A DNA stretch of 64,000 nucleotides from Acidobacteriota bacterium (GCA_027624045.1 JAQBUE010000002.1:6339-70338); one strand, 5' to 3'. Numbered from the stretch's first letter, positions 18,770-64,000 are shown. A program made the numbers and translations. The notes: generated by a model from the letters alone, not told the origin.

Positions 18770-19528
18770 TTGGCGGACAAGGACTTTGCGGGAAAGACAG
18801 CCTTAATCACTGGTGGCTCCCGAGGCATTGGGCGAGCCACGGCCCTCAAGCTGGCGCGGCACGGGGCCGATATCGCCATCAATTATCTGAGCCGCGATCG
18901 CGAGGCGGAAGAGGCGAAGCTGCTTGTCGAGCGGCTGGGTGTTCGCTGCGTTCTCGTAAAGGCCGACGTTTCTGATCCCGCTGCGGTGACTGATATGGCG
19001 GCTCGTGCCCGCGATGCACTCGGGCCGATCGACCTGCTTGTCGCAAACGCCGGGATCAGCATCCTCGAATCCCACCAAGAAATCTCCTGGGCGACTTGGC
19101 GCAAAACGATGTCGATCAATCTCGATGGCGCATTCTTGACCGTCATGGCTGTCAAGGATGAGATGCTCCGCCGCGAGTACGGCCGCATCGTTTGCATCTC
19201 GTCGGTGGCGGCCCTGCGGCCGCGAAAGATGCAGATTCACTATGCCTCGAGCAAAGCGGCGCTACATGCGATGGTTCGATGCTGCGCGGAGGCATTCGCG
19301 CCCGATGTCCGGATCAATTGCATTGCTCCCGGCTTAATCGAAACGGAGATGGGCGCGACACTGGGTTCCGAGCGCGCGGCATAGATCGTCGCCGACACAC
19401 CCCTGGGTCGCCTTGGTCAGCCCGAGGATATCGCCGATGCCGTCTACTTCCTGCTGTCCGATTTGTCGCGATTCATCACCGGGCAGACCCTCCCGGTCAG
19501 CGGTGGACGGATCATGATCGGCGCCTAG
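18770..19528 (+). pseudogene. short-chain dehydrogenase/reductase (FabG-like) interrupted by one in-frame TAG
   Basis: TGGSRGIG cofactor motif and YASSKAAL catalytic YxxxK are present. The ORF stops at TAG 19382-19384. The same frame continues [47 protein letters not shown] to TAG 19526-19528, which is the normal SDR C-terminus. Confidence 0.8.
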
Positions 19529-19688
19529 GAATTCACGAAGCTACCCGCCGAATTCACAAGCCGGCAAGCGGCTGCTCTGGGAGCTTGGCGCTCGCTGTGA
19601 TTGGATGAGTGGCCGCGAAAGTCAAAGGCGGCGGAGATCGAGACTGAGATCCTTGCTGCCCCTGTTCTGTGTTGCCCGTTCCCCGCTG

Positions 19689-20414
19689 CTACAGCGCCCG
19701 AATACCTACTAGGGCGAGCATTCTGCCCGCGGCGTCGCCGTCGCGGCGGTGGGAATGAAAGAGTTCGGAATCGCAGCGCGTACAAAGGGTGGCGGCGTGG
19801 ATTCCTTGCCCGGCGACACCGGAATCAAGGAGCTGTCGGCGGTTTTCGGCGATGAGATCGAGATGCGGGTGTGGTTGCGCGGAGCGGATACTGCTCGGGG
19901 GAAACTGAGCGGCGACGTCGGGGCCCACTTCATAACAGCAGACGCCGATCGCGGGGCCGATGGCCGCCTCCAGGTCGGCGGGGCGGGAGCCGAAGTTGCG
20001 GTGCATTTCCGCGACCGCGTGTTGCGCGATTTGCTGCGCGGTGCCGCGCCAGCCGGCATGAACGGCGCCCACGGCGCGGCGCCTCTCGTCGATCAACAGC
20101 AAGGGCACACAGTCGGCGGTTCGGACCGTCAGCAGACGGCCGGGGTCGCTGCTGATCAAGGCGTCGGCGGGCGCGCGTTCACTTGGAACGGTAGCGCTAC
20201 GCGGGACAAGCACGTCAGCGGAATGAATCTGGTGTACCGCTTCCAGCGTCATGCCGGCGGCGCCCCAACCGGCGCTTGCCTTCACGGCGGCTGCGGGGCG
20301 CGCGAAGTCGCCCGCCGGGCGGGTCGTGAAGCCGTGAATGAGCCACGACCTATCGAGCCACGGTTCTAGCTGCAAGAGCCCGGTGGACTTGCTGAATGTG
20401 AAAGGAGGCGACAT
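19689..20414 (-). CDS. pgeF: peptidoglycan editing factor / laccase-domain protein (YfiH/DUF152)
   Basis: RTADCVPLLL and VHAGWRGT motifs, with a C-terminal HSHRRDG. Start taken at ATG 20414. Confidence 0.85.
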   Translation of the reverse strand: MSPPFTFSKSTGLLQLEPWLDRSWLIHGFTTRPAGDFARPAAAVKASAGWGAAGMTLEAVHQIHSADVLVPRSATVPSERAPADALISSDPGRLLTVRTADCVPLLLIDERRRAVGAVHAGWRGTAQQIAQHAVAEMHRNFGSRPADLEAAIGPAIGVCCYEVGPDVAAQFPPSSIRSAQPHPHLDLIAENRRQLLDSGVAGQGIHAATLCTRCDSELFHSHRRDGDAAGRMLALVGIRAL

Positions 20415-20522
20415 GGGGAAAAGAATGAGGACAGTCCGCTTCGCGCGGTTCGCAACCAGCAAGCAAGCGAGTCAGTATGCCGGTGGCGCTGGCTACAGGC
20501 CCCATTTTTCCACAGCCAGCTA

Positions 20523-21860
20523 TCAGCCCGGGGGTACGAACCAGGGGAACTCGCGCACGAGATGATATCCGAGCTCCGAATACATGTAAAAGACGATCGC
20601 GGCGATGATCGCCAGCAAGATGAAGATTACCAGCCAGATCTTGCCCCATGGCAGGCTTTGGCCTTCGCGACGCAGCAGGAACAGGTAGCTGACCAGGATG
20701 CCGACATAGAACAACAGAATCATGGGCGCGGCGAACGTGATCATGTTGAAGATGTCGGGCGTCGGGGTGATCACGGCCGCCATCACGAAGATGATCAAGA
20801 TCGCGTACCGTACGTTCCTCATCAGGAACTGCGGGCTGGCAATGCGCAGCGCCGTCAAGATGAAGATGACGATCGGCATCTGGAACACCACGCCCAGGCC
20901 GAGCAGGATGCCGATGAACATGTCTGAGTACGAGCTGATGCCAATCATCGGCACGATGCCCGATGCGCTGCCCACATCGAGCAAGAAAGCCAAGGCGAAG
21001 TTGAGCGCCACGAAATAGCCGAATGCGCCGCCCAGGATGAAGAGGATGCCACCGGACATGATGAACGGCACGGCCCAGCGGCGCTCTTTCTTATACAGAC
21101 CCGGCGCGATGAACGACCAGGCCTGTAACATCCACCAGGGCGCGGCGAGAAACAGAGATGCCAGGATCGGGAGCTTGAACCAGATCAAGTGAAACTGCTC
21201 GATGGGCGTGAGCGCGACGAGTTGAATCACAACGTCCGGTGACGTTAGTTTGATCGTCGCGACAGCCTCATCGAACGGATGCCGCATCAACTGGAATAGA
21301 TAGTCTTTGGCGGTCAGGGCGATGGCGTAGGCCAGGCCGAGTCCGATGAGCGCGCGAATGATGCGGGTGCGCAGTTCCTCGAGGTGTTCGAGGAACGACA
21401 TGCGCGACATACCTTCTTCGTGATCGTCATCGTCCTCGACGTCTTCGTCTTCCACTGGAGGCGGTGGAGGAGGAGGCGCCGCCTGGGCGGGTTCGGGCTC
21501 AGCGGTATCGACGGCGGCCTTCTCGGACTGCGGTTCTTGGTAGTTGTACTCGTACTCTTGGTAGGGGTCGTCGTAATAGGTGGCTGTGGGCGGATCGTCG
21601 TTCTGCGCGCCCGTTTCGGCTGGGGCGTCGGCATCCGTCGATGGAGACTCGGCGCTCTCGGCCGAGGGCTCGTCGGAGGCTGGCCCGCAGTCGCCCGCCG
21701 CTTCCGGCGGCGAGGCATCTATCCCCTCTTGGGGTTCTTCTGGTTCGCTGGGCGCAGCGGTTTCGTCCGAGGTTTGATCCTCGGCGTCCGGGCGGGATTC
21801 GTCGGCGGACGCAGGGGTGCCGTCGCGGCTCTCCCGCGATTTTTGATCGTCGGAACTCAT
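20523..21860 (-). CDS. tatC: twin-arginine translocase subunit TatC, possibly with a ~150-aa acidic N-terminal extension
   Basis: The canonical TatC core begins MSFLEHLEELRTRIIRALIG (ATG 21401, preceded by GAAGG) and has 6 TM segments. The open frame continues upstream to ATG 21860, 10 nt after the tatA stop. Confidence 0.9.
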   Translation of the reverse strand: MSSDDQKSRESRDGTPASADESRPDAEDQTSDETAAPSEPEEPQEGIDASPPEAAGDCGPASDEPSAESAESPSTDADAPAETGAQNDDPPTATYYDDPYQEYEYNYQEPQSEKAAVDTAEPEPAQAAPPPPPPPVEDEDVEDDDDHEEGMSRMSFLEHLEELRTRIIRALIGLGLAYAIALTAKDYLFQLMRHPFDEAVATIKLTSPDVVIQLVALTPIEQFHLIWFKLPILASLFLAAPWWMLQAWSFIAPGLYKKERRWAVPFIMSGGILFILGGAFGYFVALNFALAFLLDVGSASGIVPMIGISSYSDMFIGILLGLGVVFQMPIVIFILTALRIASPQFLMRNVRYAILIIFVMAAVITPTPDIFNMITFAAPMILLFYVGILVSYLFLLRREGQSLPWGKIWLVIFILLAIIAAIVFYMYSELGYHLVREFPWFVPPG

Positions 21861-22565: not shown

Positions 22566-24959
22566 ATGGTCCTGGCGCGGATTGTCTTAGCGATGACGCT
22601 GGCCCTAGCGGTGCAGACTGCCTGTGTCGCTAGTGGGGCTGCTCAGGGGGCCGCTCAGATCGAGAACGCCGCCGGCTTTGATCAAGACGTCACACCTTTT
22701 CTGAAGACTCACTGCGTCGCCTGCCACAGCTCGGAGCTGCGGATGGGGGGCGTCGATCTCGGCGCTTATACCGATGCCCAGAGGGCATTGCAAGATGCGG
22801 CGCTCTGGGATCGCGCGACCCAGATGGTTCGGGCCGAGCTGATGCCGCCGAAGGGTCTGCCCAGGCCCGCGCGCGAGGAGGTCGATCGTTTCCTGCGCTG
22901 GTTTGAGTCGCAAACCGGCAGCGGAGTATCAGATGCGGACGTATCGGAGGCGTCCGTATCGAGGCCGGGCGATCCGGGCCGCGTGACAGCTCGCCGTCTG
23001 AACCGCCAGGAGTACAACAACACGGTGCGCGATCTGGTGGGCATCGATTTCCGGCCGGCGGACGGGTTTCCGGCGGACGACTCCGGTTACGGATTCGACA
23101 ACATCGGCGACGTGCTGTCGCTCCCGCCGGTGCTGATGGAGAAATATCTGGCCGCCGCGGAACTCATCGCGGAAAAGGCGATCGTCGCCGAGCCGCACTT
23201 TGAGCCCACGCTCGAGAAGCATCTGGCACCGCGCACGGCCGAAGCCAAGGGCGCGATCGAGTTCTCTTGGGAAGGCTCGATGGAGGTCGTCCATGACTTC
23301 CCGCGCGATGCGGAGTACAAGATCAAAGTCAGTGCGGTAGATCGCCGCAAGGTGCCTGAGGACAAGCCGGGGGAGCCGAAGGCGGAACCGCCGCCGGCGC
23401 TGCCGTTCGAGTTTACGATCGACGGTGAACGCGTCGAAGTCTTTCAGGTCCGTTCGCAGTACTACGGCAAGAACACTGATGAGGTCACGCTCAACCTGCC
23501 GCGCGGCCCGCATACTTTGGCGGCGCGTTTTCTCGTAGACGTCACAAAGATCCCCGATCATGAGGCCGAAAAGTATGACAAGCCACGCAGGATGGCCTTT
23601 GGCGACTACTTTGAGATTCTCGGTCCGTTCAACGCCCGGCTGCCGCCGCTCCCGGAAAGCCACGAGAAGATCTTCACGTGCGGCGAACCTGAGTTCGGGC
23701 GTTATCCTCCGGGTTGCATCGAGCGAGTCATCGAGAATCTGGCGCGGCGGGCATATCGGCGACCGGTAGCGCGGGAGGAAATCGATGGGCTCAAGCGGCT
23801 CATCGACTTGGCGCGTGAGAACGGCGATTCGATCGAGCAGGGCATGAGGCTTGTCCTGCAGGCGGTGCTGGTTTCACCACACTTCCTGTTCCGGATCGAG
23901 CATGACCCTGATCCGAATGACCCCGGCGCGATTCATGAAGTCGACCCCTATGAGCTGGCTTCGCGGCTCTCATATTTCCTGTGGAGCAGCATGCCAGATG
24001 GTCGCCTGCTGGAGCGCGCCACAAGCCTGGAGCTATCGAGGCCCGAACTACTCGAAGAGGAAGTCACGCGCATGCTCGCCGACCCTCGCTCACAGGCCCT
24101 GATCGAAAACTTCGCGGGGCAGTGGCTCGAGTTGCGCAATCTCGCATTGGCCTCTCCAGACCCGGACATCTTTCCCGAGTTCGATGACGAACTGCGGTCG
24201 GCGATTCGCACCGAAACCGAGTTGTTCTTCGAGACCGTGCTGCGCGAAGACCGCACGCTGGCCGACTTTCTGGACGGCCGCTTCACGTTCTTGAATGAGC
24301 GTCTGGCGCGGCACTACGGAGTAGCGGGCGTGGAAGGTCCGGAGTTCCGTCGGGTGAGCCTTGATGGCAGTCAACGTAGCGGCATTCTGACGCAGGCCAG
24401 CGTGCTGCTGCTGTCCTCGTATCCAACACGCACGTCGCCGGTGCTGCGAGGCAAGTGGCTGCTGGACAGTATCCTCGGTACGCCGCCACCGCCTCCACCC
24501 GCCGCTGTACCGGCACTCGAAGAGACAGTTGTGGCCGGCGGCACGCTCAGGCAGCAACTCGAGATGCACCGCGCCAATCCGGCCTGTGCTTCCTGCCACG
24601 AGAAGATGGATGCACTCGGGTTCGGGATGGAAAACTACGACCCGATTGGGCGCTGGCGGACAGATGACAGGGGGCTTCCGCTCGATACGTCAGGGGTGCT
24701 GCCGGGTGGCGAATCGTTCGTGGGGCCCGCCGAACTCAAGCAAATTCTCAAGGCCCAAAAGGCGGATTTCGCGCGCTGTTTGACGGAAAAAATGTTAACC
24801 TACGCCCTAGGAAGAGGGCTGGAGAGGTTTGACCGGTCCACTGTCGATAGCATTGTCAGCACCCTGGCGGAGGACGACTATCGGTTCTCGCGTCTGATAG
24901 CAGAGATTGTAAAGAGCAAGCCCTTCCGCATGCGGCGGGGCGAGGAAGGGACATCGTGA
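22566..24959 (+). CDS. DUF1592-family multidomain protein (DUF1587/1592/1595/1588/1585-like) with N-terminal heme-binding motif
   Basis: Signal peptide from ATG 22566 (MVLARIVLAMTLALAVQTACVASGAAQG). CVACHS is a CxxCH motif. RRLNRQEYNNTVRDLVGIDF, CASCHEKMDALGFGMENYDPIGRWR and CLTEKMLTYALGRGLE match conserved blocks of this family. Confidence 0.85.
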   Translation: MVLARIVLAMTLALAVQTACVASGAAQGAAQIENAAGFDQDVTPFLKTHCVACHSSELRMGGVDLGAYTDAQRALQDAALWDRATQMVRAELMPPKGLPRPAREEVDRFLRWFESQTGSGVSDADVSEASVSRPGDPGRVTARRLNRQEYNNTVRDLVGIDFRPADGFPADDSGYGFDNIGDVLSLPPVLMEKYLAAAELIAEKAIVAEPHFEPTLEKHLAPRTAEAKGAIEFSWEGSMEVVHDFPRDAEYKIKVSAVDRRKVPEDKPGEPKAEPPPALPFEFTIDGERVEVFQVRSQYYGKNTDEVTLNLPRGPHTLAARFLVDVTKIPDHEAEKYDKPRRMAFGDYFEILGPFNARLPPLPESHEKIFTCGEPEFGRYPPGCIERVIENLARRAYRRPVAREEIDGLKRLIDLARENGDSIEQGMRLVLQAVLVSPHFLFRIEHDPDPNDPGAIHEVDPYELASRLSYFLWSSMPDGRLLERATSLELSRPELLEEEVTRMLADPRSQALIENFAGQWLELRNLALASPDPDIFPEFDDELRSAIRTETELFFETVLREDRTLADFLDGRFTFLNERLARHYGVAGVEGPEFRRVSLDGSQRSGILTQASVLLLSSYPTRTSPVLRGKWLLDSILGTPPPPPPAAVPALEETVVAGGTLRQQLEMHRANPACASCHEKMDALGFGMENYDPIGRWRTDDRGLPLDTSGVLPGGESFVGPAELKQILKAQKADFARCLTEKMLTYALGRGLERFDRSTVDSIVSTLAEDDYRFSRLIAEIVKSKPFRMRRGEEGTS

Positions 24960-26311
24960 TGCGACACGCACGGCTTTCGAGACGGACACTCCTCAGAGGC
25001 ATGGGCGCCGCGGTTGCTCTTCCCGTTCTTGACGCAATGCGGCCTGCTTTCGCGGCTTCCTCAAGCCGCTTGACGACGCAAGCCCCCGTCAGGATCGCGT
25101 TCTCTTATGTCCCCAACGGCATCATCATGGAGGACTGGACGCCGGCGGTGGAAGGTGCCCTCGGGAGCCTGCCGAAGCTGCTCGAACCGGTCGCCAAGTT
25201 TCGTGACGATGTGATGGTCATGTCCGGGCTGACCCACAACAATGGGCGGGCACTGGGTGACGGACCGGGCGACCACGCGCGGGCGGCGGCCTCATTCCTC
25301 ACCGGCGTGCATCCGAGGAAGACCGATGGCGCTGATATTCACAACGGTATCTCGGTCGATCAGGTAGCGGCTAACCTGCTGGGCGGCCAGACGCGTTTCG
25401 CGTCCCTCGAATTGGGTACCGAACATGGCCGCTTGGCTGGGAACTGCGATTCCGGCTATAGCTGCGCCTATAGCAACAGCATTTCCTGGCGCAGCGAGAC
25501 GACACCGATGCCGCCGGAGGTGAATCCGCGGCTCGTGTTCGAGCGGCTCTTTGGGCGGCCCGGAGTGAGTGACGATCCAGTCGAGCGCGCCAAGCGCCAG
25601 CGCTACAACAAGAGTATTCTCGATTTCGTTCGTGAGGATACGCGGCAGCTGCAGGCCGATCTGGGTCCGACCGATCAGCGCAAACTTGATGAGTATCTGA
25701 CGGGTGTGCGCGAGATCGAAAAACGTATCGCGGCGACGGAGGCTTCGGCTGATCAGGTGGACCCGGGCATGGCCCGGCCGTCAGGCGTGCCGGTCGATTT
25801 CGCCGAACACGTTAAGTTGATGTACGACTTGCAAGTGGTTGCGTTCCAAACCGACCAGACGCGCATCACAACGTTCATGATGGGCGGCGAAGGCAGCAAC
25901 CGCACCTACCGCGAGATCGGCGTATCGGAAGCTCACCACGGGCTCACGCACCACCAGGGCGACGAATACAAGATCGCGCAGATCAGCAAGATCAATCACT
26001 ACCACATGGAGCTGTTCTCCTACTTTTTGGAGAAGCTGGACTCGATCCCCGAAGGCGATGGCACGTTGCTCGACAATTCGATCGTTGTCTATGGCAGCGG
26101 GCTCGCCGACGGAAACCGGCACACACACCACGACCTGCCCGTCCTCGTAGCGGGACGCGCCGGAGGCCTGCTCCATCCCGGTCGCCACCTGCGCTACAAG
26201 ATGGAAACGCCCATGGCGAATCTGTACATGACGCTGCTCGATCGGCTCGGCGTGCAGCCCGAGACGATTGGCGACGCCAATGGCCGCCTTGAGCACTTGA
26301 CAGACGTCTAG
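24956..26311 (+). CDS. DUF1552 domain protein with twin-arginine signal
   Basis: N-terminal LSRRTLLRGMGAAVALPVLDA is a Tat-type signal. The start overlaps the upstream stop (GTGATG). DUF1552 is the usual partner of DUF1592-family genes. Confidence 0.85.
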   Translation: MMRHARLSRRTLLRGMGAAVALPVLDAMRPAFAASSSRLTTQAPVRIAFSYVPNGIIMEDWTPAVEGALGSLPKLLEPVAKFRDDVMVMSGLTHNNGRALGDGPGDHARAAASFLTGVHPRKTDGADIHNGISVDQVAANLLGGQTRFASLELGTEHGRLAGNCDSGYSCAYSNSISWRSETTPMPPEVNPRLVFERLFGRPGVSDDPVERAKRQRYNKSILDFVREDTRQLQADLGPTDQRKLDEYLTGVREIEKRIAATEASADQVDPGMARPSGVPVDFAEHVKLMYDLQVVAFQTDQTRITTFMMGGEGSNRTYREIGVSEAHHGLTHHQGDEYKIAQISKINHYHMELFSYFLEKLDSIPEGDGTLLDNSIVVYGSGLADGNRHTHHDLPVLVAGRAGGLLHPGRHLRYKMETPMANLYMTLLDRLGVQPETIGDANGRLEHLTDV

Positions 26312-26333: not shown

Positions 26334-26594
26334 ATGGCACAGGAACCGAATCAAGAACGCCGGCAGGCTCACGATTTACTGGATCTGCTGCCCGCCGATA
26401 AGGTCAACGTCGTCCGGAACCTGCTCGAAGTGATGGTGGAACCGCTTGCGCGTTCGCTCGCCGGATCTCCCGTGGAAGAGCAGGACGTCACACCGGAGAC
26501 GGCGGCGGCAGTCGATCGGGCCCGGGCATCGCTCGCTCGCGGCGAGGGAGTCCCTCATGAGGAGATTCGCCGCGAGTTCGGACTGAGCCAGTGA
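26334..26594 (+). CDS. putative type II antitoxin (partner of RelE/ParE-like gene)
   Basis: 86-aa acidic ORF whose stop overlaps the GTG of the downstream RelE/ParE-like frame in a GTGA. The family is inferred from position only. Confidence 0.5.
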   Translation: MAQEPNQERRQAHDLLDLLPADKVNVVRNLLEVMVEPLARSLAGSPVEEQDVTPETAAAVDRARASLARGEGVPHEEIRREFGLSQ

Positions 26595-26863
26595 ACGAGG
26601 GCGACGCGCCCAAGCGCGTCAGCGTTCTGTGGTCGCCGGAAGCACGCGCCGACCTGCGGGCTATCGATCGCGAAACGGCAATGCAGATTCTCTCCTGCAT
26701 CGATTGATATGTAGCCGGCCGCACCGGGGATGTGAAAAAGCTAAAGCCGCCGCGGACGGACTTTCGCCTCCGCTGTGGTGACTACCGCATCTTCTTCGAG
26801 CCCGCCAACCTTAACGCGATCCATATCACCACCATCCGCCACCGCCGCGAAGCTTACCGCTAA
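26591..26863 (+). pseudogene. RelE/ParE-family toxin interrupted by one in-frame TGA
   Basis: GTG 26591 reads VNEGDAPKRVSVLWSPEARADLRAIDRETAMQILSCID, then TGA at 26705-26707. The same frame continues YVAGRTGDVKKLKPPRTDFRLRCGDYRIFFEPANLNAIHITTIRHRREAYR to TAA 26861-26863. GDVKKL...RLRxGDYRxxF...HRREAYR is the RelE/ParE core. Confidence 0.75.
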
Positions 26864-39020: not shown

Positions 39021-39097
<77 letters not shown>

Positions 39098-39106
39098 GTG
39101 AGGACA

Positions 39107-44131: not shown

Positions 44132-44165
44132 CAGGAAACCGGGTTCAGCTTAACGTGCCCGCTGC

Positions 44166-45449
<1,284 letters not shown>

Positions 45450-45663
45450 TTATTGTTCAGCCATAGTCGTCTATCCTACCCTACTGTTAGTGAGATTTTC
45501 AGCGGCACGCTGCCGCCTATTCTGGTTAGCGCGACTTGACCGAACTAGGCGACATGACGGGCTGAAATACTTGACGCGATTCTACTACGTCGCCGCGTCG
45601 CCGCGGGCGGCCATCACCAACAAAAAACCGTCGCACGGGATATAAGGGATATAATTGGTCACG

Positions 45664-47016
45664 ATGAAGTACTGTGGACTTGTTTTGCTGTTCGCCTTGG
45701 GGATGGGGGTGTCATCGGCCCAGGTGAGCTACTACAACGACTTGCGCCCGGTTGTCGAGCGCTCGTGCCAGGGCTGCCATCAACCGGCAGGCAAGATGGG
45801 CGGGCTGGACTTGACGTCCTACGAGGCGATCACGGCGGGCGGAAACAAAGGGCCGTCGTTTGTCGCGGGTGCGGCCGAGGAAAGCCGCCTCGTGACGCTG
45901 CTGACGGGCGCGGGCGAACCCCGCATGCCGTTTGGTCAGGACCCCTTAGCGGACAGTGAGATCGACCTGTTCCGGCGCTGGGTGAGCGAGGGCGCCAAGG
46001 ATGATACGCCCGAATCTGCGCGAGGGCCGCAAGTGCCGTCCGAGCCTCCCACTTACGATCAGCCGCCCGTGCTGACCGCCGCCGCGTTTTCACCGGACGG
46101 GAAACTGCTGGCCGTCGGCGGGTATCGCGAGATTCTGCTTCACAAGGCCGATGGCTCGAAGATCGAAACGCGCTTGCTGGGACGATCCGACCGTATTCAC
46201 TCTGTCGCTTTCACGCCCGATGGAACGAAGCTCGTAGCCGTGGGCGGTACGCCGGGGCGCTTCGGCGAAGTTCAGGTTTGGGACCTCGCTTCGAAGACGC
46301 AACTGCATTCGGTGATGGCAACCGCTGACACGCTCTTTGGCGGCGCGCTTTCGCCGGATGGAACGCACGTCGTGGTCGGCGGTGCGGACAACCGCGTGCG
46401 GGTCATTGAGATCGCGACGGGCAAGGAGTTGTTCAAGGCTGGGCATCATGAAGATTGGGTGCTCGATGCCATTTTCGGGATTGATGGCAAGCGGGTTGTC
46501 ACGGTAGGCCGCGACCGCGCGGCCAAGCTGGCGGACGCCCAAACCGGCGCATTCCTAGAGAACGTCAACTTCCTGCGCGATGAGTTGTACGTGATTGCGC
46601 GCCACCCGCGGCGTGATTATGTGTTGATTGGCGGCGCGGACCGCGTGCCTTACCTCTATATGATGGACCGGCCGCGAGCGTTGAAGATCGCGGATGACTC
46701 GACGCTCGTGCGGAAATTCGATGAGCAGGAGGACGCGATTCACGCGCTGGCATTCAGCCAGGACGGCAGCCGCATCGCAGTCGGCGGCATCGCCGAGTTC
46801 GTCAATATCTACGACACCGAGTCGGGCGAGCGGGTGGCGAGTTGCAAGTTGCCGGCCGGAGGAGCTTTCGTGCTGGAGTTTCCTCCCGACGGCCGGCAGT
46901 TGCTGGCCGGGGGATTTGATGGCTTGTTGCGGGTTTTCGATGTTGCAAGTGGCAAGCAGGTGAAGGAGTTTTCGCCGGTCCCTCTTGAAAAGGGGCGGTT
47001 GCGGTCGGCCCGCTAG
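45664..47016 (+). CDS. secreted c-type-cytochrome-domain (PSCyt1-like) protein fused to a WD40 beta-propeller
   Basis: Signal peptide MKYCGLVLLFALGMGVSSAQ. CQGCHQPAGKMGGLDLTSYEAI is a CxxCH motif and RMPFGQDPLADSEIDLFRRWVSEGA follows. Repeated FSPDG..LA.GG...V.VWD-type WD40 units come after. Confidence 0.8.
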   Translation: MKYCGLVLLFALGMGVSSAQVSYYNDLRPVVERSCQGCHQPAGKMGGLDLTSYEAITAGGNKGPSFVAGAAEESRLVTLLTGAGEPRMPFGQDPLADSEIDLFRRWVSEGAKDDTPESARGPQVPSEPPTYDQPPVLTAAAFSPDGKLLAVGGYREILLHKADGSKIETRLLGRSDRIHSVAFTPDGTKLVAVGGTPGRFGEVQVWDLASKTQLHSVMATADTLFGGALSPDGTHVVVGGADNRVRVIEIATGKELFKAGHHEDWVLDAIFGIDGKRVVTVGRDRAAKLADAQTGAFLENVNFLRDELYVIARHPRRDYVLIGGADRVPYLYMMDRPRALKIADDSTLVRKFDEQEDAIHALAFSQDGSRIAVGGIAEFVNIYDTESGERVASCKLPAGGAFVLEFPPDGRQLLAGGFDGLLRVFDVASGKQVKEFSPVPLEKGRLRSAR

Positions 47017-47032
47017 AAGGGCTTTTGACGAA

Positions 47033-49426: not shown

Positions 49427-49431
49427 CAGGA

Positions 49432-51906: not shown

Positions 51907-51964
51907 TCGCGGAAGTGGTGGAAGAACAGTCCCCATTTTCCGCATTGCTGATTGCTGGGTGAGT

Positions 51965-54391
51965 ATGACGACTCGACTCCTTTGCCTGATTATTCTTGTG
52001 CAATGGGCGCTGCAGGCCGCCGCGCCGGCGCTGCTCCGGATCGAGCCTCGCGGCGGACAACGCGGCCAGGCGGTGAAGCTGACTTTAGTCGGCCGCGGGC
52101 TGGATGAGAATGCCTCGATCGAGACAAAGATTCCCGGTGCCGTGACGGCGCTCTCACCGCCCAAGAGCTCGATGGCGCGCGGACGCGAGTTGCCGTTTCT
52201 CGTCGAAATCTCCCCCGAAGCAGCGCTCGGTGTTTATCCGGTTCGTGTTCAATCGCCCGACGGGTTGTCGAATGTTCTGCTGTTCACGGTGGGCGCGTTC
52301 CCTGAGGTTGCAGAGCGCGAGGCCGAGCTGATGGAGCCCAAGCCGGCGAATGATTCCGCCGCGAACGCTCAGCCGATTGAGACGCCGGTGATCGTGAACG
52401 GGACGCTTTATGGTCCTGACCGCGATTACTTTTCATTCCAGGCCGGCAAGGGCGAGCGGCTCGTGATCGAGGTCGAAGCGCGCCGTATCGGTTCCGCCGT
52501 CGATCCGCTGATCGAGGTGCTAGACGCGGCGGGCCGCAGGCTGACCTGGAACGACGATGCGCCGGGGATCGGCATCGATGCGCGTGTCGATGTCAGCTTT
52601 CCTGAGCAAGGGACGTACTTTGTCGCCCTGCGCGATTCGAAGTTCAGCGAACAGGAACAGGACTACTACCGCCTGAAGATCGGCAAGTACGCCTATGCGG
52701 AAGGCCTCTATCCATTGGGCTGGCAGCGCAGCGGAGAGACGGAAGTTGAGTTTGTCGGCGGCAATCTCGGCGAGGCGATTCGGGTGCGTCCGGATCTGGC
52801 GACTGAGCAGCTCGCAGCCGAGTTCGCCATGCTGCACCTACCGGGCGAGGCCGGAGCGCTGCCCATGCCGTTCGCGTTGAGTGGCGAGCGGGAAACCTTG
52901 GAATCACCCGGACAGAAGAACACACTCGAGCCTCAGTCCTGGATGAACGGCCGCATCGCGAAGCCGGGCGAGATCGATACCTACGTCTTGAAGGTGAAGC
53001 CGCAAGAGCATTGGTATGTCGAACTGCATGCCACCACTCTTGGCACATCGCGGCTCTATGGCGTCCTGACAGTTCGCGAGCCCGGCGGTGAGCGGATTGC
53101 TTCGACTCGCAGCTTGAGCGCAGAGGAGAAGCTCTCGAACCTCGACGTTTCCGAAGATACGGGCATCGACCAGTTCGTATCGTTCCAAGCAGGGGAAGCA
53201 GCCAAGGAAGGGCACGGCGAAATCCACATTGAAGTCGAAGACCTGCTCGGCCGCGGCGCGCCTGACTTCGGCTATCGAATCGTGGCGCGGCGTCAGAGCG
53301 GCGATTTCACGCTGACTCTGCGAACACATGAAGTGAACGTCCCCGCGAGCGGAACCGGGCTGGTCGTCGTCAACGCCGAGCGTCGCGGTTATGACGGTCC
53401 GATCCGCTTGTTCGTGCCCGAGATCCCCGAAGGATTAGTCGCCGAGGGTGGCAACATGCCGCTCTACGAGATCGCGGGCAGCACGCGGCAAGGGTCTTCG
53501 GCACTACTGACGCTGACCCACAAGCCGGGCGCGGAACTACGGAATGCGAGCCTTCAAATTTGGGGCGAAGCCGAGATGGGCGGGCAGCTCGTGCGGCGCA
53601 GAGCACGCGGCCCGGGGCTGGAAGTGAATGTTCAGAGTGAGAACGAGATCCAACGCTTAAACCGCGGCTTCAGCAGCGCGAACGTCGCCCCGTGGCTCGG
53701 CGCGGACTTGCCGCTTCGGATCGTGCCGGAAGCGCCGGCGGCCATTGAAGTCAGCACGTCGCGCTACATGCGTGTGATTCCGGGCTTGAAGTACGAGCTC
53801 GATTGGAAGCTCACAAGCCGCGACGAAGACATCAGCCCGCCGAAAAATATGGGCGTCAATAAGACGCCCAACGTGCGAACCTTCAACCGCTCCCGCAAGG
53901 AAGACCAAGGCAAGGCGCAGGGGACACTTGATGTCGGCAGCCAGCTCAGTTGGGGGCCCGGTAAGTACGAAATGGTTCTCACCGCCCGGGTCGATGTCGA
54001 CGGCCAAAGGGAGACGATCTACGCCCCGGCGATAACGGTCGATGTGATTCGTGCTTACGAAATCGAGCCGGAAGTCACTTCGATCCGGGCGGGCGCCGAG
54101 ACCGAACTTGTGGCGCAGCTCAAGCGCGAACCGGGCTTCGAGTCCCCGGTAGAGATCAAGGCCGAAAACCTGCCCTTGGATGTCGAATGTGAAACGGTGA
54201 CCGTCGCGCCTGACACCTCCGCCATGAGCGTCCCATGCAGGGCGGGCGCGAAGGTCGAGCCGGGCGAATACGAAATTGATCTCGCGTCTTCCTCGGTCGT
54301 GATCGGCGACGACCAACGTGAGATCCCCATCACCCGCCCGCCGGTCAAAGCCACGCTTCGGGTTGTTCGAGCCGCCTTGGCCGCCCGTTGA
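51965..54391 (+). CDS. secreted ~800-aa protein with two PPC-like modules, paralog 2
   Basis: Collinear similarity to 47033-49426. Examples: VIEVEARRIGSAVDPLIEVLDAAG, FSEQEQDYYRLKIGKYAYAEGLYPLGWQR and LLGRGAPDFGYRIVARRQSGDFTLTL. Confidence 0.7.
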   Translation: MTTRLLCLIILVQWALQAAAPALLRIEPRGGQRGQAVKLTLVGRGLDENASIETKIPGAVTALSPPKSSMARGRELPFLVEISPEAALGVYPVRVQSPDGLSNVLLFTVGAFPEVAEREAELMEPKPANDSAANAQPIETPVIVNGTLYGPDRDYFSFQAGKGERLVIEVEARRIGSAVDPLIEVLDAAGRRLTWNDDAPGIGIDARVDVSFPEQGTYFVALRDSKFSEQEQDYYRLKIGKYAYAEGLYPLGWQRSGETEVEFVGGNLGEAIRVRPDLATEQLAAEFAMLHLPGEAGALPMPFALSGERETLESPGQKNTLEPQSWMNGRIAKPGEIDTYVLKVKPQEHWYVELHATTLGTSRLYGVLTVREPGGERIASTRSLSAEEKLSNLDVSEDTGIDQFVSFQAGEAAKEGHGEIHIEVEDLLGRGAPDFGYRIVARRQSGDFTLTLRTHEVNVPASGTGLVVVNAERRGYDGPIRLFVPEIPEGLVAEGGNMPLYEIAGSTRQGSSALLTLTHKPGAELRNASLQIWGEAEMGGQLVRRRARGPGLEVNVQSENEIQRLNRGFSSANVAPWLGADLPLRIVPEAPAAIEVSTSRYMRVIPGLKYELDWKLTSRDEDISPPKNMGVNKTPNVRTFNRSRKEDQGKAQGTLDVGSQLSWGPGKYEMVLTARVDVDGQRETIYAPAITVDVIRAYEIEPEVTSIRAGAETELVAQLKREPGFESPVEIKAENLPLDVECETVTVAPDTSAMSVPCRAGAKVEPGEYEIDLASSSVVIGDDQREIPITRPPVKATLRVVRAALAAR

Positions 54392-54423: not shown

Positions 54424-55653
54424 CTATTGCCGCCCGGGCTGAGCCCTAAGCCGCGCTTCAACCAGGGCCGCTTCCTGGGTCCGTCCTTGGCCGCGCAGCA
54501 CATCAAGATAAGTCGCCAGGACGACCGCTAGACCGGTGTTTTCCGGCCCGGCGATGGAGTCGAGAATCGCCAAGGAGCGCTCGATAAGGGGCGCCGCATC
54601 GGCGTAGCGTTGCTGGTCGCGATAAAGAGCCGCCAAGTTATGCAGGGCTGTCGCGGTTTCGGGATGATCGAGGCCGACAGCCTGCTCCCAAACGGCCACG
54701 GCTTCGCGGTACAGCTCTTCCGCGTCCGCGAACTGATGTTGAACGCGATAAACCTCCGCCAGATTATTGAGGTCGGTAGCGCGAGCGGCGGGGTCGGAAT
54801 TATCGCTGCCTTTACGAAGTTCTAGGGCTTGCTCGAGAAGGCGTTCCGCCTCGGCCATTTGAAAGCGACCCCGATAGACGGCGGAAAGATTGCTGCAACT
54901 CTGGGCCATCCTGGCATCGGCAGGGTCGAGGACGCGGCTCCGCACGGCCAGGGCTTGCTCGAGCACAGGAGCGGCACGCTCGGGCCGGCCGCCGGCGTTG
55001 TGGATGACTCCCAGGTCGCTCAGTAGATCGGCGTACTCGGCGTTATCGGTGCCGAGGTGGGCCTTCGTGATCTCGGCGGCGCGGGCTAGCGCGGCTGCGG
55101 CCTCTTCCAGTTGTGCCGCGCTGAAGTAGGCCTTCGAAAGCTGAATCAGGGGCTCGCGGAGAGCTTCATTCCCGGCCCCCAGCGCTTTCTCTCGGATCTC
55201 GACAATCCGCTTATAAAGCGGGACAGCATCGGTGGTTTTACCTCGAATCCGCTGCAGCTCAGCAAGATTTTCTAGGAGTGTCGCCAGCTCCGGATGGAAC
55301 GGGCCAAGACTGCCCTCCAAGATCTTCGCCGCGCGCCAATAGAGCGGTTCGGCCAGATGAAACTGGCGCTGGGCGTAGTACAGCAGACCGAGGCTGTTCA
55401 GAGACGCCGCCACACGCGGGTCCTGCAGTCCGAACCGCTCGGCTGCCTTGAGAGCCGCGACGTAGGAATCTTCCGCTTCGCTGTACTTTCGTTCGGCGAG
55501 ATGCTGGTCGCCTACTTCACGGAGTTGCCGCCACACTTCGGTCTGCGCGAAGCTTGTTGGTGCGGCGCCCGTCGCGGCGAGAGCAAGAGCCACGACGGTG
55601 AGAAGAGAACTGATTAGAGGGTTTCTCAACAAGGTTCTCAAAAGCTTTCTCAA
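54424..55653 (-). CDS. secreted tetratricopeptide-repeat protein
   Basis: A signal-like N-terminus is followed by about 8 repeats of the A..L.NLA.LY..QG.Y..AE.LY..AL type (TPR_10/12-like). TTG start. Confidence 0.8.
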   Translation of the reverse strand: MRKLLRTLLRNPLISSLLTVVALALAATGAAPTSFAQTEVWRQLREVGDQHLAERKYSEAEDSYVAALKAAERFGLQDPRVAASLNSLGLLYYAQRQFHLAEPLYWRAAKILEGSLGPFHPELATLLENLAELQRIRGKTTDAVPLYKRIVEIREKALGAGNEALREPLIQLSKAYFSAAQLEEAAAALARAAEITKAHLGTDNAEYADLLSDLGVIHNAGGRPERAAPVLEQALAVRSRVLDPADARMAQSCSNLSAVYRGRFQMAEAERLLEQALELRKGSDNSDPAARATDLNNLAEVYRVQHQFADAEELYREAVAVWEQAVGLDHPETATALHNLAALYRDQQRYADAAPLIERSLAILDSIAGPENTGLAVVLATYLDVLRGQGRTQEAALVEARLRAQPGRQ

Positions 55654-58717: not shown

Positions 58718-60004
58718 GTGAAGCGGACCGGGCCGGAAGAAACTTTGCGTTGCTCTTTTTGCCACAAGACCCAAGAGGTCGTTGGCAAACTGATTTCGAC
58801 CCCCGGCGACTACCCGAAGGCGTACATCTGTGATGAGTGTGTAGCCGTCTGCAACTCGATCCTCGAGGATGACCGCCGCGAGACGCCGGGTCCGAACCTG
58901 TTTACGCTGCTGAAACCCCAGGAAATCAAGGAACGCCTTGACCAGTACGTCATCGGGCAAGAGCAGGCCAAGAAGAAGCTCGCCGTCGCCGTCTACAACC
59001 ACTACAAGCGCGTCTTCATGACGAAGCAGCGCAGCGCCGATGTCGAGTTGCAGAAATCGAACATCCTGCTGGTCGGCCCCACCGGCACAGGCAAAACACT
59101 GCTGGCCCAGACGCTCGCCAAGATCCTGGATGTGCCGTTCGCCATCGCCGACGCCACCACGCTTACCGAAGCCGGTTACGTAGGCGAGGATGTCGAGAAC
59201 ATCATCCTCAAGCTGCTGCAAGCCGCCGATGGCGACGTGCAGCGCGCTCAGCAGGGTATCATCTACATCGACGAGATTGACAAGCTCAGCCGCAAGGACG
59301 AGAATTCTTCGATCACGCGCGACGTTTCCGGCGAAGGCGTGCAACAAGCGTTGCTGAAGATACTCGAGGGCACGGTCGCCAACGTCCCGCCGCAGGGCGG
59401 CCGCAAACACCCGCATCAGGAGTTCACTCCGGTCGATACGACGAACATCCTTTTCATTTGCGGAGGCGCGTTCGTTGGACTCGAGAAGATCATCGCCCGG
59501 CGCCTGAATCACCGCGTAGTCGGGTTCCGTTCACCTTCAGAACCGAAGGAAGGCTTGAAAGCCATCCCGGCCGCGAAGATCGATCAAGGCGAGCGGGATT
59601 CCGAGTTGCTCATTCAGGTTCAGCCACAGGACTTGATTCGGCACGGCTTCATCCCCGAGTTCGTGGGCCGCCTGCCGGTTAACACGGTCCTGACCGCTCT
59701 CGACCAGCCGGCGCTAGTCCAGATCTTGACTCAGCCTAAGAATTCCCTCGTCAGGCAGTATCAAAAACTCTTTGAGTTCGAGAACATCAGTCTCACCTTC
59801 GAGCCCGAAGCCTTGGAGGCCATTGCCGCCTTGGCGCTTGATCGCAAGGTAGGGGCGCGCGGCCTGCGGATGATTCTCGAAGAGATGATGCTCGACCTGA
59901 TGTACTACCTGCCATCGAAGAAGCACGTCAAGGAATTTCTCATCACCAAGCCGATGGTCGAGAATCACAGCCTCAGCTTGATCATCCTCGAGAAGGCCGG
60001 TTAG
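58718..60004 (+). CDS. clpX: ATP-dependent Clp protease ATP-binding subunit ClpX
   Basis: GTG start 7 nt after GAAGGAG. Zinc-binding CSFCHK...CDEC, Walker A GPTGTGKT, and IYIDEIDK. Confidence 0.95.
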
Positions 60005-60354
60005 GGGTACCTAGCGGCACCGCTGGCGGGCTTGGGTCCGGTTGCAGCGCCGAGATTGGACCTTCGAGTCAGCGCTTCGCCCACCCGTTACGCAATCCGC
60101 CGCTACTCCCGTGTAGCGAATTTCGGCTGTCGTGCCTGTGTGCGATGTGTCCCCTGGGTAGTGTTGTTGGCTAACGCCTGAATGGCCTCCTGGCTCGGTT
60201 CTTAGAAGATGGCGTGAGCCGGGCTTGTTTGGACTTGGCAAGTTCCCCGGGAGTATCAAGTTCCGCCTCTTGCCACCAGCAATGGGTGGTGCCTGCAAAT
60301 TACTGGGTGGTATGAGTGTTTTCTTGTAGTACGAGGCTCTGGAACGAGCCTATC

Positions 60355-60404
60355 TAACTACATGTAGAAATATTTATTGACTTAGGCACAAGATGATGTA
60401 CACT
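60355..60404 (+). promoter_or_regulatory. candidate nrdJ promoter overlapped by two NrdR-box-like palindromes
   Basis: This is the only AT-rich patch nearby. TTGACT (60377-60382), N16, then TACACT (60399-60404). The 16-mers TAACTACATGTAGAAA (60355-60370) and GCACAAGATGATGTAC (60386-60401) partly match acaCwAtATaTwGtgt. Their centres are 31 bp apart. Confidence 0.45.
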
Positions 60405-60539
60405 ATGGGAACGTCGTCGATGGTCAGAACCCGGTAACTTTCCCGCAGTTGCCTCATCAGACCGCCGATGACCCCACAATAATCCGGGTTGGCCGCTCAT
60501 TTAGGGGAGTGGGATCGACTAAAGGTCGGAGGGCGTAGC

Positions 60540-63347
60540 ATGGGTGAAATCAGCGTGGATCTGGCGGCTAAAGTAGACGAGCTGTCATCGCAGATCGCAC
60601 GTCGGCAGGGGTTGTCATTCCCCCGCTACTTTACGAAGAACATCGAGGCAGGGAAAACGCCCTACGACTTGATCGAATGGGAGAAACGCACCGCTTCCAT
60701 TGCGAATGAGAAGGGCGACGTCATCTTCGAGCAGCGCGACGTGGAGATGCCGCGCGACTGGTCGCAGACGGCCACCAATATCGTCGCCAGTAAATACTTT
60801 CACGGCCAAGCCGGCACTCCGCAGCGAGAGAGCAGCCTGGCGGAGCTCGTACACCGCGTCGTCGACACGATCGCCGATTGGGGCGCGGCCGGTGGTTACT
60901 TCGCCGGCACCGAAGATGTCGAGAACTTCCGCGGCGAACTCGCGCACCTGATGCTGCATCAGAAGGCGAGCTTCAACTCGCCGGTTTGGTTCAACGTTGG
61001 TGTCAAGGAAGGCCGTGGCTACGGCTGGGCCTGGGATGCCCGCCGCTATGCGATGAAAGCACTCGAGGCCGGCGAGCACCGGCCGCAGTGCTCGGCCTGC
61101 TTCATCATCGCGGCCGGCGACACCATGGAATCCATCATGGACCTCGCCAAGACCGAGGGCATGCTTTTCAAATGGGGATCGGGGACCGGCTCGAACCTCT
61201 CAAAAATTCGTGAGGAAGACGCCTTGTTGCGAGGCGGCGGCAAGGCGTCGGGGCCTGTCTCGTTCATGAAGGGTTTCGACGCCTTCGCCGGCGTCATCAA
61301 GTCAGGCGGCAAAACCCGCCGCGCCGCGAAGATGGTTATCCTCAACGCCGAGCACCCTGACATCAAGAAATTCATTTGGTGCAAGGCCAGCGAAGAGCGT
61401 AAGGCGCGGACGCTGATCGATGCCGGTTACGACTCGGCGATCGACGGCGACGCTTACGGCTCGATTTTCTTCCAGAACGCCAACAACTCCGTCCGCGCCT
61501 CCGACGAATTCATGCTGGCCGCCATCAAGGATGAAGACTGGTGGACACGCTCGGTCCTCAACAGCCAACCCAAAGAGCGCCACAAAGCGCGTGAGTTGCT
61601 CAACCAGATCGCCGAGGCCACTCACCAGTGCGGCGACCCGGGCATGCAGTTCGACACAACGATCAATCGTTGGCACCCTTGCAAGAATACCGACCGCATC
61701 AACGCCTCGAACCCCTGTTCGGAGTACATGTTCCTTGATGATTCGGCTTGTAATTTGGCGTCGCTGAATCTGATGAAGTTCCGCAAGAGCAAGGGCGGCT
61801 TCAACGTCGAAGCATTCCGGCACGCTGTCGACACGCTAATCGTCGCGCAAGAGATCCTGGTGGACAACGCCAGTTATCCGACCGAGACGATAGGGCGCAA
61901 CTCGCATGACTACCGTCCGCTGGGGCTAGGCTTCGCGAACCTGGGCGCGCTGCTGATGTCAATGGGCGTGGCCTACGACAGCGATCCGGGCCGCACCACC
62001 GCCGGCGCCATTACCGCGGTGATGTGCGGCCAGGCTTATCTCACCAGCGCGCGGGTCTCGGAAGTCACGGGAGCGTTTCCGGGCTACGAGAAAAACCGCG
62101 AGCCTTTCCTCGAAGTCATCCGCATGCACCGCGACGCGTCGCGCAAGATCAACGGCGCGGTCATCGACGAGCCTCTCCATCAGGCCGCGCAGAGCTGCTG
62201 GGACGACGCCTATGAGATGGGCCGCCTGCACGGCTACCGCAACGCCCAAGTGACCGTGATTGCGCCGACCGGCACCATTGGCTTCATGATGGATTGCGAC
62301 ACGACCGGCGTCGAGCCCGAGTTGGCGCTCATCAAATACAAGAAGCTTGTCGGCGGCGGCGTCATCAAGATCGTCAACAACACGGTCGAGGAATCGCTGC
62401 TCAAACTCGGTTACTCGGCTGCGAAGGCGAGCGACATCGTCAGCCATATCGATTCGACGGGAACGATCGAAGGTGCCGAGCACATCAAGCAAGAGCACCT
62501 GCCGGTGTTCGATTGCAGCTTCCGGCCCCAGAACGGCGAACGCTCGATCCACTATCTCGGCCATTTGCGGATGATGGGCGCCGTGCAGCCGTTTATCTCG
62601 GGCGCCATCTCGAAAACGATCAATATGCCCGCGGAGTGCACTGTTGCTGACACCACGGACGCTTACATTGAGGCCTGGCGTTTGGGTCTGAAGTCGGTGG
62701 CAATCTATCGCGACGGTTCCAAGCGCACTCAGCCGCTGAATACGTCCGGCGCTGACGGTAAGCAGGGCACGAAGAAAGTCGCCGGGCTCGTCACCGAGAA
62801 GATCATCTACAGGCCGCACCGTGAAAAGCTGCCTAACGAACGCCAATCGCTGACCCATAAGTTCGCCGTGGGCGGGCATGAAGGCTACATCACCGTCGGT
62901 CTTTACGAGGACGGCACTCCGGGCGAGATCTTTATCAAGATGTCGAAGGAAGGGTCGACGATCAGCGGCCTGATGGACAGTTTCGCGACGGCCGTTTCGA
63001 TGGCCTTGCAGTACGGCTTGCCGCTCAAGGCGCTCGTCGACAAGTTCGCGCACGTTCGCTTCGAGCCCAGCGGTTGGACGGGTTCGAAGGATATTCCCTA
63101 CGCCAAGTCGATCATGGACTACATCTTCCGCTGGCTGGGGATGCGATTTATCTCGCCCGACTATCAGCAAACCGAAGCGGGCGAAACACCGAAGCTGCGG
63201 CCCACCGAACCCGAACCGCAGCAACAACTGGAGTTTAATGCGGCTCCGCTCGACGCGCCGATTTGCGCCGAATGCGGCTCGTTCATGACGAGCAACGGTA
63301 GCTGCTACAAATGCGAGAACTGCGGCTCTACCTCCGGCTGCAGTTAG
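60540..63347 (+). CDS. nrdJ: adenosylcobalamin-dependent ribonucleotide reductase, class II
   Basis: ATG 60540 sits 7 nt after GGAGGG. NPCSEYMFLDDSACNLASLNL is the active-site Cys block. The C-terminal Cys-rich tail is CAECGSFMTSNGSCYKCENCG. Length is 935 aa. Confidence 0.95.
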   Translation: MGEISVDLAAKVDELSSQIARRQGLSFPRYFTKNIEAGKTPYDLIEWEKRTASIANEKGDVIFEQRDVEMPRDWSQTATNIVASKYFHGQAGTPQRESSLAELVHRVVDTIADWGAAGGYFAGTEDVENFRGELAHLMLHQKASFNSPVWFNVGVKEGRGYGWAWDARRYAMKALEAGEHRPQCSACFIIAAGDTMESIMDLAKTEGMLFKWGSGTGSNLSKIREEDALLRGGGKASGPVSFMKGFDAFAGVIKSGGKTRRAAKMVILNAEHPDIKKFIWCKASEERKARTLIDAGYDSAIDGDAYGSIFFQNANNSVRASDEFMLAAIKDEDWWTRSVLNSQPKERHKARELLNQIAEATHQCGDPGMQFDTTINRWHPCKNTDRINASNPCSEYMFLDDSACNLASLNLMKFRKSKGGFNVEAFRHAVDTLIVAQEILVDNASYPTETIGRNSHDYRPLGLGFANLGALLMSMGVAYDSDPGRTTAGAITAVMCGQAYLTSARVSEVTGAFPGYEKNREPFLEVIRMHRDASRKINGAVIDEPLHQAAQSCWDDAYEMGRLHGYRNAQVTVIAPTGTIGFMMDCDTTGVEPELALIKYKKLVGGGVIKIVNNTVEESLLKLGYSAAKASDIVSHIDSTGTIEGAEHIKQEHLPVFDCSFRPQNGERSIHYLGHLRMMGAVQPFISGAISKTINMPAECTVADTTDAYIEAWRLGLKSVAIYRDGSKRTQPLNTSGADGKQGTKKVAGLVTEKIIYRPHREKLPNERQSLTHKFAVGGHEGYITVGLYEDGTPGEIFIKMSKEGSTISGLMDSFATAVSMALQYGLPLKALVDKFAHVRFEPSGWTGSKDIPYAKSIMDYIFRWLGMRFISPDYQQTEAGETPKLRPTEPEPQQQLEFNAAPLDAPICAECGSFMTSNGSCYKCENCGSTSGCS

Positions 63348-63378
63348 GTGGTTTGTCGTTGGATGCGTTCCTCCTCTT

Positions 63379-63428
63379 CCCGGGCGGGCGGCCTTTGAGA
63401 ATCGGCCACCTGCCCGGGAGTTTTATTT
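63379..63428 (+). terminator. intrinsic terminator after nrdJ
   Basis: CCCGGGCGGGCGGCC, a loop, then GGCCACCTGCCCGGG forms an imperfect GC-rich hairpin. AGTTTTATTT follows, about 30 nt after the nrdJ stop. Confidence 0.55.
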
Positions 63429-63612
63429 GCCGCTAGCGATGCGACGCCTGCGGATGGTGGAAGTGTCGGAGCCACGGGTGTCAGCCTGTGGGCCCGCGGT
63501 CGAGGCAACCACGCGAGTTCCCTCGTGTCACACATCTCGCTGCCTGTAATACCGTAGAGTGAAAAGTGAAGCAGGAACCTAGCTCACAGCTTGGTTTCAG
63601 ATCCGTTGAGCG

Positions 63613-64000
63613 ATGGATGGCATAATCTCTCTCCCCGATACGTCGTTCAAGCAATCCGCCCGTTATGCGCTACGGATACGTTGTGCGGTCTGCGGCGACG
63701 GTCGCCCATTCAGCCGTTGATTCTCGATGGCCGCCAAGTGTTCCGCCTGCGGCTTCCACTACAAGCGCGAGCCTGGCTATTTCATCGGCGCCATGTATGT
63801 GAGCTATGTCATGTGCGTAGCGATGATGATGCCGCTCGTGCTGTATTGCATGCTGTCGGGTGTACCGATGAGCGTCGCCTGCCTCGTCGGATTCGCCCAG
63901 ACCACTTTGCTCTCACCGCTGATCTTTCGCTATTCCCGCGGACTGTGGATCGCCCTTGATCTCGTCCTAAGCCCCATTGAGCCGCGCGATTTTGGCGTCA
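63613..64000 (+). pseudogene. DUF983-like zinc-ribbon membrane protein with one in-frame TGA; 3' end cut by window edge
   Basis: ATG 63613 reads MDGIISLPDTSFKQSARYALRIRCAVCGDGRPFSR, then TGA at 63718-63720. The same frame continues FSMAAKCSACGFHYKREPGYFIGAMYVSYVM... with two TM segments. Two CxxC pairs plus REPGYFxGAMY fit DUF983. The track ORF 63591-63959 is in a different frame. Confidence 0.7.

Follow-up and report, generated by a model that had tools for sequence, protein, structure and literature searches.

We analysed a 64-kb window of DNA from an Acidobacteriota bacterium (64,000 nucleotides, JAQBUE010000002.1:6339-70338 of GCA_027624045.1; 61% GC; called the window below), in which four genes, for an SDR protein, a RelE/ParE-family toxin (RelE), the enzyme MetY and a DUF983 protein, each carry one in-frame stop codon. 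The four stops are very likely real, recent and independent single-base nonsense mutations, amounting to ordinary strain-level gene loss. The phenomenon is of an already known kind, and no new code, recoding or special mutagenesis is needed for it. One strain of an uncultured Bryobacterales-like acidobacterium would carry CAG>TAG, CAA>TAA, TGG>TGA and probably CGA>TGA as loss-of-function alleles, in genes that the lineage can spare or is losing (the accessory SDR, a toxin of a toxin-antitoxin pair, the DUF983 protein and metY). Programmed read-through would play no part, and the C:G>T:A type of the changes would be the product of the genetic code together with the usual bacterial spectrum of mutations.

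Four genes with a single in-frame stop

The interrupted genes and their stops are as follows.

18770-19528, plus strand: SDR gene, 252 codons, the last gene after an ABC/MacB/MFP transporter cassette
19382-19384, plus strand: premature TAG in SDR, codon 205 of 252; CAG (Gln) to TAG, C>T at 19382
26591-26863, plus strand: RelE/ParE-family toxin gene, 90 codons; its GTG start overlaps the TGA of the antitoxin gene
26705-26707, plus strand: premature TGA in RelE, codon 39 of 90; probable ancestral codon CGA (Arg)
44166-45464, minus strand: metY (O-acetylhomoserine sulfhydrylase), 432 codons; PF01053 by public annotation
45450-45452, minus strand: premature TAA in metY, codon 5 of 432; CAA (Gln) to TAA, plus-strand G>A at 45452
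63613-64000, plus strand: DUF983 membrane-protein gene, about 133 codons, running past the window end (Pfam; homologues of 126-131 amino acids)
63718-63720, plus strand: premature TGA in DUF983, codon 36; TGG (Trp) to TGA, G>A at 63720

All four stops were located where a preliminary description of the sequence had placed them, and its figure of about 55 genes agreed with our own count of 55, to which percentages refer. The reading frame of each gene was extended past both ends, and together with Pfam coverage this revealed no further interrupted gene and no frameshift among the 55 window genes, so that the earlier statement that no conserved gene is frameshifted here was borne out. The nonsense frequency was 4/55, that is 7.3% (exact 95% confidence interval 2-18%). 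If 1% of genes carried a nonsense mutation, at least four hits would be expected with a probability of 0.002; if 3% did, the probability would be 0.08. The observed frequency is mildly unusual, being elevated, though the numbers are small, and unremarkable if the per-gene rate is 3%.

Pfam profiles aligned on both sides of the stop in three of the genes. The TAG shortens the SDR product to 204 amino acids, likewise the length in public gene calls, and translation past it gave a normal, conserved SDR C-terminus, with adh_short_C2 spanning residues 18-246 of 252. In the toxin, whose start was placed by alignment to the N-termini of its homologues, ParE_toxin (PF05016 family) was covered across the stop from profile position 1 to 89 of 89, and in the DUF983 gene the DUF983 profile was covered from 1 to 83 of 85.

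For metY the continuity across the stop was provided by homologues. The 5′ end of the gene reads ATG GCT GAA CAA TAA GAA CGC, with the ATG at 45464-45462 and an AGGA Shine-Dalgarno sequence 8 nucleotides upstream of it. Most of the closest homologues are exactly 432 amino acids long and cover 100% of the read-through query, including the four codons before the stop, and begin with MAEQQERSF or MSEQEERSF; the upstream ATG is therefore the native start. Public gene calls start the gene at TTG 45419, which gives 417 amino acids. The product matched proteins named O-acetylhomoserine (thiol)-lyase at 76-98% identity over 95-100% of the length, a full-length match within the Cys_Met_Meta_PP (PF01053) family. 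Re-initiation at the TTG, 11 codons past the stop, may allow low-level expression of metY.

Ancestral codons in a sister strain

Contigs of a sister strain were recovered from other samples, and their identity to the window ranged from 88 to 100% depending on the region. It was 99-100% at about 18,900-20,700 and at 61,850-64,000, and about 99-100% over the greater part of 11 kb at the left end of the window. Given the 99-100% identity around SDR and DUF983, the changes in these genes are very recent.

At the SDR site, CAG was read in 7/7 sister contigs (L007-L013), which stem from as many other sequencing runs. An intact 252-amino-acid sister protein (P0003), which clusters with the truncated SDR at 90% identity, has Gln at the stop position. 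In metY, CAA was present in L014 (96.8% nucleotide identity) and in L015 (GCA_035513875.1, 88.5%). In DUF983, codon 36 was TGG in the sister contigs L016 and L017 (two runs; 99.4% identical across the stretch from the class II ribonucleotide reductase gene, RNR, to DUF983), and three of the five homologues covering the position have Trp there. The changes in SDR, metY and DUF983 are shown by this to be C:G>T:A transitions that arose on the window lineage.

For RelE the derived state is indicated at the protein level. Its 120 closest homologues are mostly 90 amino acids long and 70-79% identical, and the stop column holds Arg in 118 of them and His in two. The closest being about 79% identical, no relative was found that is close enough for the ancestral DNA to be read, and the site with N at the mutated base gave no match in a JGI metagenome scan; the path was probably CGA>TGA. 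The preliminary description had held that every stop lies one transition away from a sense codon, and the sister DNA confirmed this with CAG, CAA and TGG, the CGA of RelE remaining the probable codon.

Taken on these sequence comparisons, the nonsense alleles would be strain-level differences within one species. The nearest species representative in GTDB is a Bryobacterales metagenome-assembled genome (91% amino-acid and 81% nucleotide identity); it was set aside as a comparison, since only the PSD/HXXSHH gene pair is shared and no orthologous SDR or RelE neighbourhood is present.

Second lesions in the sister strain

Two further features of the window are needed for the comparison of the strains.

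17558-18760, plus strand: HlyD-type membrane-fusion (MFP) gene, directly upstream of SDR, intact in the window
63946-63948, plus strand: Trp codon 112 of DUF983, TGG in the window and TAG in the sister strain

The sister DUF983 gene was found to carry TGG>TAG at codon 112 together with a 51-nucleotide in-frame deletion at about 63872-63922, in both L016 and L017 and hence in two runs. By sequence, these lesions appear to be an independent second knock-out of the same gene, a case of parallel inactivation. Only two differences separate window and sister strain in DUF983, both of them nonsense, and in the neighbouring RNR gene there are six synonymous and two non-synonymous ones. Next to SDR, alignment and three-frame translation of the sister MFP gene revealed a 2-nucleotide deletion at about 18054, which shifts the frame, and a 6-nucleotide deletion at about 18133, and the gene was called as two open reading frames (ORFs) of 205 and 188 amino acids in two independent runs (L007, 390-1584; L008, 1408-2602). 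SDR itself differs between the strains by three synonymous, three non-synonymous and one nonsense change. The two strains together thus hold five nonsense changes versus one frameshift.

Since DUF983 was hit twice and the transporter-SDR operon was hit in two genes, relaxed or negative selection is indicated and not error. Relaxed constraint or repeated loss was seen in DUF983, in the MFP gene beside SDR and in the single-nucleotide differences of SDR; metY is the exception, in which the window branch has, besides the stop, 19 synonymous and three non-synonymous changes, the latter conservative, and the sister branch 17 and four.

A sharp mosaic boundary was observed at the start of SDR. The ABC/MacB(FtsX)/MFP cassette at about 16150-18850 is 80-88% identical to the sister strain (L007-L011), and the DNA downstream of the boundary, 18900-20700 (SDR, Cu-oxidase_4 and TatC), is 99-100% identical to it. 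From the alignments it looks as if the transporter cassette was replaced by recombination in one strain. A divergent patch of similar kind lies at about 6500-8900 (85-97%), and another covers the first 236 codons of metY.

The toxin-antitoxin module

The interrupted toxin gene follows a short intact gene.

26334-26594, plus strand: putative antitoxin gene, 86 amino acids, intact (ORF and translation; exact protein MDA1311822.1 from an Acidobacteria metagenome-assembled genome)

A Pfam search with the 86-amino-acid protein gave no match; its presumed antitoxin role follows from its position and from a 4-nucleotide GTGA overlap with the toxin start. The module resembles decayed type II toxins of the RelE/ParE kind (PF05016) in its combination of an intact antitoxin gene with a toxin gene inactivated by a point mutation. 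No other strain carrying this module was found. A second type II module, VapB/PIN (VapC) at 9663-10252 on the plus strand, is an intact pair.

Agreement between assemblies

Contigs of the window strain from ENA (ERZ23495043, sample SAMN03444961) and from Logan (SRR2027830) matched the window with 100% identity from 7558 to 31969 and from 39038 to 54131, stretches which span the SDR, RelE and metY stops and thus three of the four sites. Furthermore, a 1.8-kb contig from a second sample (L004, SAMN03444948), adjoining SDR, was also 100% identical to the window. Two proteins of the window are present in NCBI within an Acidobacteria metagenome-assembled genome. The assembly label 'MEHR18-1' may point to the Caspian Sea depth profile (BioProject PRJNA279271) as the source of the sample; the sample accessions were not found in a literature search. 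No new nonsense lesion was observed in a further 10 kb of the same scaffold outside the window, nor in 11 kb of the sister strain. A split recJ some 6.3 kb before the first position of the window, in ENA scaffold_1717 (L102, about 3540-3620), was considered as a lesion and rejected, since it coincides with a scaffolding run of N and is an assembly gap.

Stop codons and the genetic code

All three stop codons end normal genes in the window (TAG 31, TGA 13, TAA 10; n = 54), with complete Pfam domains upstream. The in-frame cases comprise one TAG, one TAA and two TGA, the latter at different residues (Arg and Trp). In the relatives the four positions are occupied by Gln (SDR), Gln (metY), Trp (DUF983) and Arg (RelE), and neither Cys or selenocysteine nor a conserved stop was found at any of them in the close relatives or homologues compared. 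No stable fold was detected, relative to shuffled sequences, in the 66 nucleotides from both TGAs and from the TAG (z = 0.87 for RelE, -0.39 for DUF983 and 0.15 for SDR), and a search for structures like the selenocysteine and pyrrolysine insertion elements (SECIS, PYLIS) downstream of the stops was likewise negative. No suppressor tRNA was found in the 64-kb window, the sole tRNA being tRNA-Asp, which was also the sole Rfam match.

For selenocysteine, the orthologues thus offered Arg in RelE and Trp in DUF983, with no stable fold after either TGA. For pyrrolysine at the TAG, the site is CAG in all seven sister contigs, the protein is an ordinary SDR and no structure follows the stop. The preliminary description had called codon reassignment unlikely; with Gln, Trp and Arg in the orthologues and all three stops still terminating genes, reassignment is rejected on the sequence evidence. 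In-frame stops inside conserved genes are the feature shared with selenocysteine (TGA with SECIS), pyrrolysine (TAG) and reassigned codes (TGA to Trp or Gly; TAG/TAA in phages). Unlike in those systems, the stops here are not conserved in orthologues, and are of three types, and neither a structure for recoding nor, in the window, a suppressor tRNA accompanies them.

An early scan of GC content at third codon positions had raised TAG reassignment from in-frame abutting ORFs that end in TAG. This candidate was rejected, since translation and Pfam showed separate adjacent genes, as in 15110-17554/17555-18760/18761-19384 (FtsX, MFP and SDR) and 35250-36392/33975-35249 (TrpS and MFS); the ORF 54532-55617 was an antisense frame of a TPR gene. 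Same-frame unrelated neighbours, separated by a stop and 0-3 codons, occur at 8672/8682, 12760/12761, 17554/17558, 18760/18770, 35246/35250 and 58255/58301, and such neighbours mimic genes interrupted by an in-frame TAG or TAA.

TAG was the commonest gene end in the window (31/54); with the same crude ORF caller it accounted for 37% in Bryobacterales relatives and 21% at other high-GC loci. The excess over the comparison loci (L019-L028, L061 and L015) gave a Fisher P of about 0.01-0.02. In the 10 kb upstream on the same scaffold the gene ends were TGA in five cases and TAG in two, and the excess may partly be due to sampling. Published surveys have found no dependence of TAG usage on GC content and describe TAG as suboptimal throughout the bacteria (PMC3549826).

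The C:G>T:A pattern

The preliminary description had listed deamination, a repair defect and a poor consensus among the possible causes of the C:G>T:A pattern of the changes. We enumerated the single-base paths from sense to stop codons, and the only transitions among them are the changes of CAA, CAG, CGA and TGG, all of which are C:G>T:A. Because the code offers no other stop-making transition, the pattern reduces to transitions versus transversions and carries little information. With the codon usage of the window, C:G>T:A accounted for 22% of the nonsense paths under a flat spectrum and for 37-63% at a 2-6 fold transition bias. Under the lineage's own polarised spectrum the share was about 56%, with P of about 0.10 for four out of four changes and about 0.06 for five out of five.

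Polarisation with an outgroup was valid in one region of 1.7 kb, the metY triplet, where C>T made up 12/29 of the changes on the window branch and 11/26 on the sister branch. For the SDR region, polarisation with L010 as sister and L007 as outgroup was dropped, since both belong to the same clade there and the sister branch was zero. The equal shares on the two branches mean that there is no damage-like or mutator-like excess in the window; in the metY region the C>T share did not exceed that of the sister strain, as cytosine damage or a poor consensus would have it. Given the code structure and the equal branch shares, the pattern is no pointer to any of these causes. The mutated C, with the sister DUF983 change included, stands in the contexts ACA, ACA, ACC, TCG and CCA, which have no common motif. 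Transitions from G/C to A/T are the predominant bacterial mutation at any GC content, high-GC clades included (Hershberg and Petrov, 2010, PMC2936535), and the nonsense changes of the window are of this same type and differ from it in nothing.

Weighing the explanations

The stops would be a technical artefact if they arose from sequencing error, from deamination of template cytosines, or from a low-coverage or mixed-strain consensus, and we consider this improbable. It draws on the common origin of the assemblies across the stop sites and on the fact that all four changes are C>T or G>A, as deamination gives. However, three assemblies are identical at every base over tens of kilobases, the contig from the second sample is identical over its 1.8 kb beside SDR, and C>T is no more frequent on the window branch than on the sister branch. 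Lesions of this kind also occur in the sister strain, each of them in two independent runs, and the stops fall in dispensable-looking genes and not at random among essential ones. Of a similarly low, marginally smaller probability is a mutational cause particular to the lineage, either a mutator (a defect in ung, mutY or mismatch repair) or an exogenous cytosine-deaminase toxin, which raises C:G>T:A changes. All five nonsense changes are of that type once the sister DUF983 TAG is counted, the lesions of the window are nonsense only and their per-gene frequency is elevated. Nevertheless, under the genetic code a stop that arises by transition can only be C:G>T:A, the polarised C>T shares are equal on both branches, the sequence contexts show no deaminase motif, and another 10 kb of the same contig held no further lesion. 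The repair genes in question have their place elsewhere in the genome, beyond the 64 kb.

Programmed or tolerated read-through is the least probable of the alternatives. The genes would then remain functional because TGA is read as selenocysteine or TAG as pyrrolysine, or because the code is altered or a suppressor tRNA is present. In its favour, the sequence past every stop is still well conserved, metY shows ongoing purifying selection, and TAG is oddly dominant among the gene ends. The downstream conservation, however, follows from the mutations being so recent, and the positions hold Gln, Gln, Trp and Arg in relatives; moreover, three stop codons are involved, each of which ends many genes with complete Pfam domains, and neither a stable hairpin nor, within the window, a suppressor tRNA was available for it. 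A broader reading, in which the population bears a heavy, lineage-specific load of segregating nonsense alleles through C>T hypermutation or a stop-tolerant termination biology, is also given little probability; the TAG-dominated gene ends are a hint of unusual termination biology.

Several points weigh against our preferred reading, that of four ordinary nonsense mutations. Every recovered assembly of the window strain across the stop sites derives from one sample, and for the DUF983 TGA no second window-strain assembly was obtained by exact-protein look-ups with RNR and ClpX; the FGE-sulfatase gene led to nothing more than a 5-kb contig, which ends short of DUF983. The ancestral codon of RelE is deduced from proteins only. 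Seven per cent of genes is high for a free-living bacterium, and four nonsense changes with zero frameshifts have a P of about 0.004-0.06 if nonsense makes up a quarter to half of inactivating lesions, a share assumed in line with pseudogene surveys. Finally, the pattern of purifying selection in metY matches that in the sister's intact gene, so either its lesion is very young or the gene still functions.

On balance, of the causes listed in the preliminary description, real mutational decay is the one that the evidence supports. All four genes have presumably lost their function, and the stop alleles are presumably in the majority in the reads. Nonsense pseudogenes and segregating loss-of-function alleles are well catalogued in Salmonella Typhi, Shigella and Mycobacterium leprae. 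The present case is like theirs in its single-base stops in conserved genes, their absence from close relatives, the accessory functions concerned and the repeated hits in a sister lineage. It is unlike those host-restricted pathogens in that the bearer appears to be a free-living planktonic acidobacterium, and in that the window has no frameshifts, insertion-sequence insertions or deletions in a sample of only about 55 genes; frameshifts usually outnumber nonsense lesions in bacterial pseudogenes. In this uncultured aquatic acidobacterium the window offers a clear natural case of gene loss between strains at a very early stage, with DUF983 and the transporter and SDR operon each knocked out independently in two strains. 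Should the nonsense frequency of 7% hold genome-wide, purifying selection in this free-living lineage would seem to be weak, or its niche to have shifted recently.

Other gene content of the window

Upstream of the class II (B12-dependent) RNR gene lies a gap of about 535 nucleotides (60004-60540), part of which is AT-rich (60360-60410). Rfam models, that of the cobalamin riboswitch included, gave no hit at the gathering score in this gap, which may hold a promoter or an NrdR-type operator.

A compact cluster for cofactor F420 occupies 10366-13450 on the minus strand and comprises F420 ligase (CofE), CofC, CofD and an F420-dependent oxidoreductase, the genes lying so close together that their stops and starts overlap or abut. 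Planctomycete-type PSCyt/PSD clusters with a DUF1552-like (HXXSHH) partner were observed on the plus strand at 22593-26311 and 45664-54391, the second of which contains a PSCyt1-WD40 protein, two paralogous proteins of about 800 amino acids with PPC domains, and a PSCyt2/PSD1 protein.

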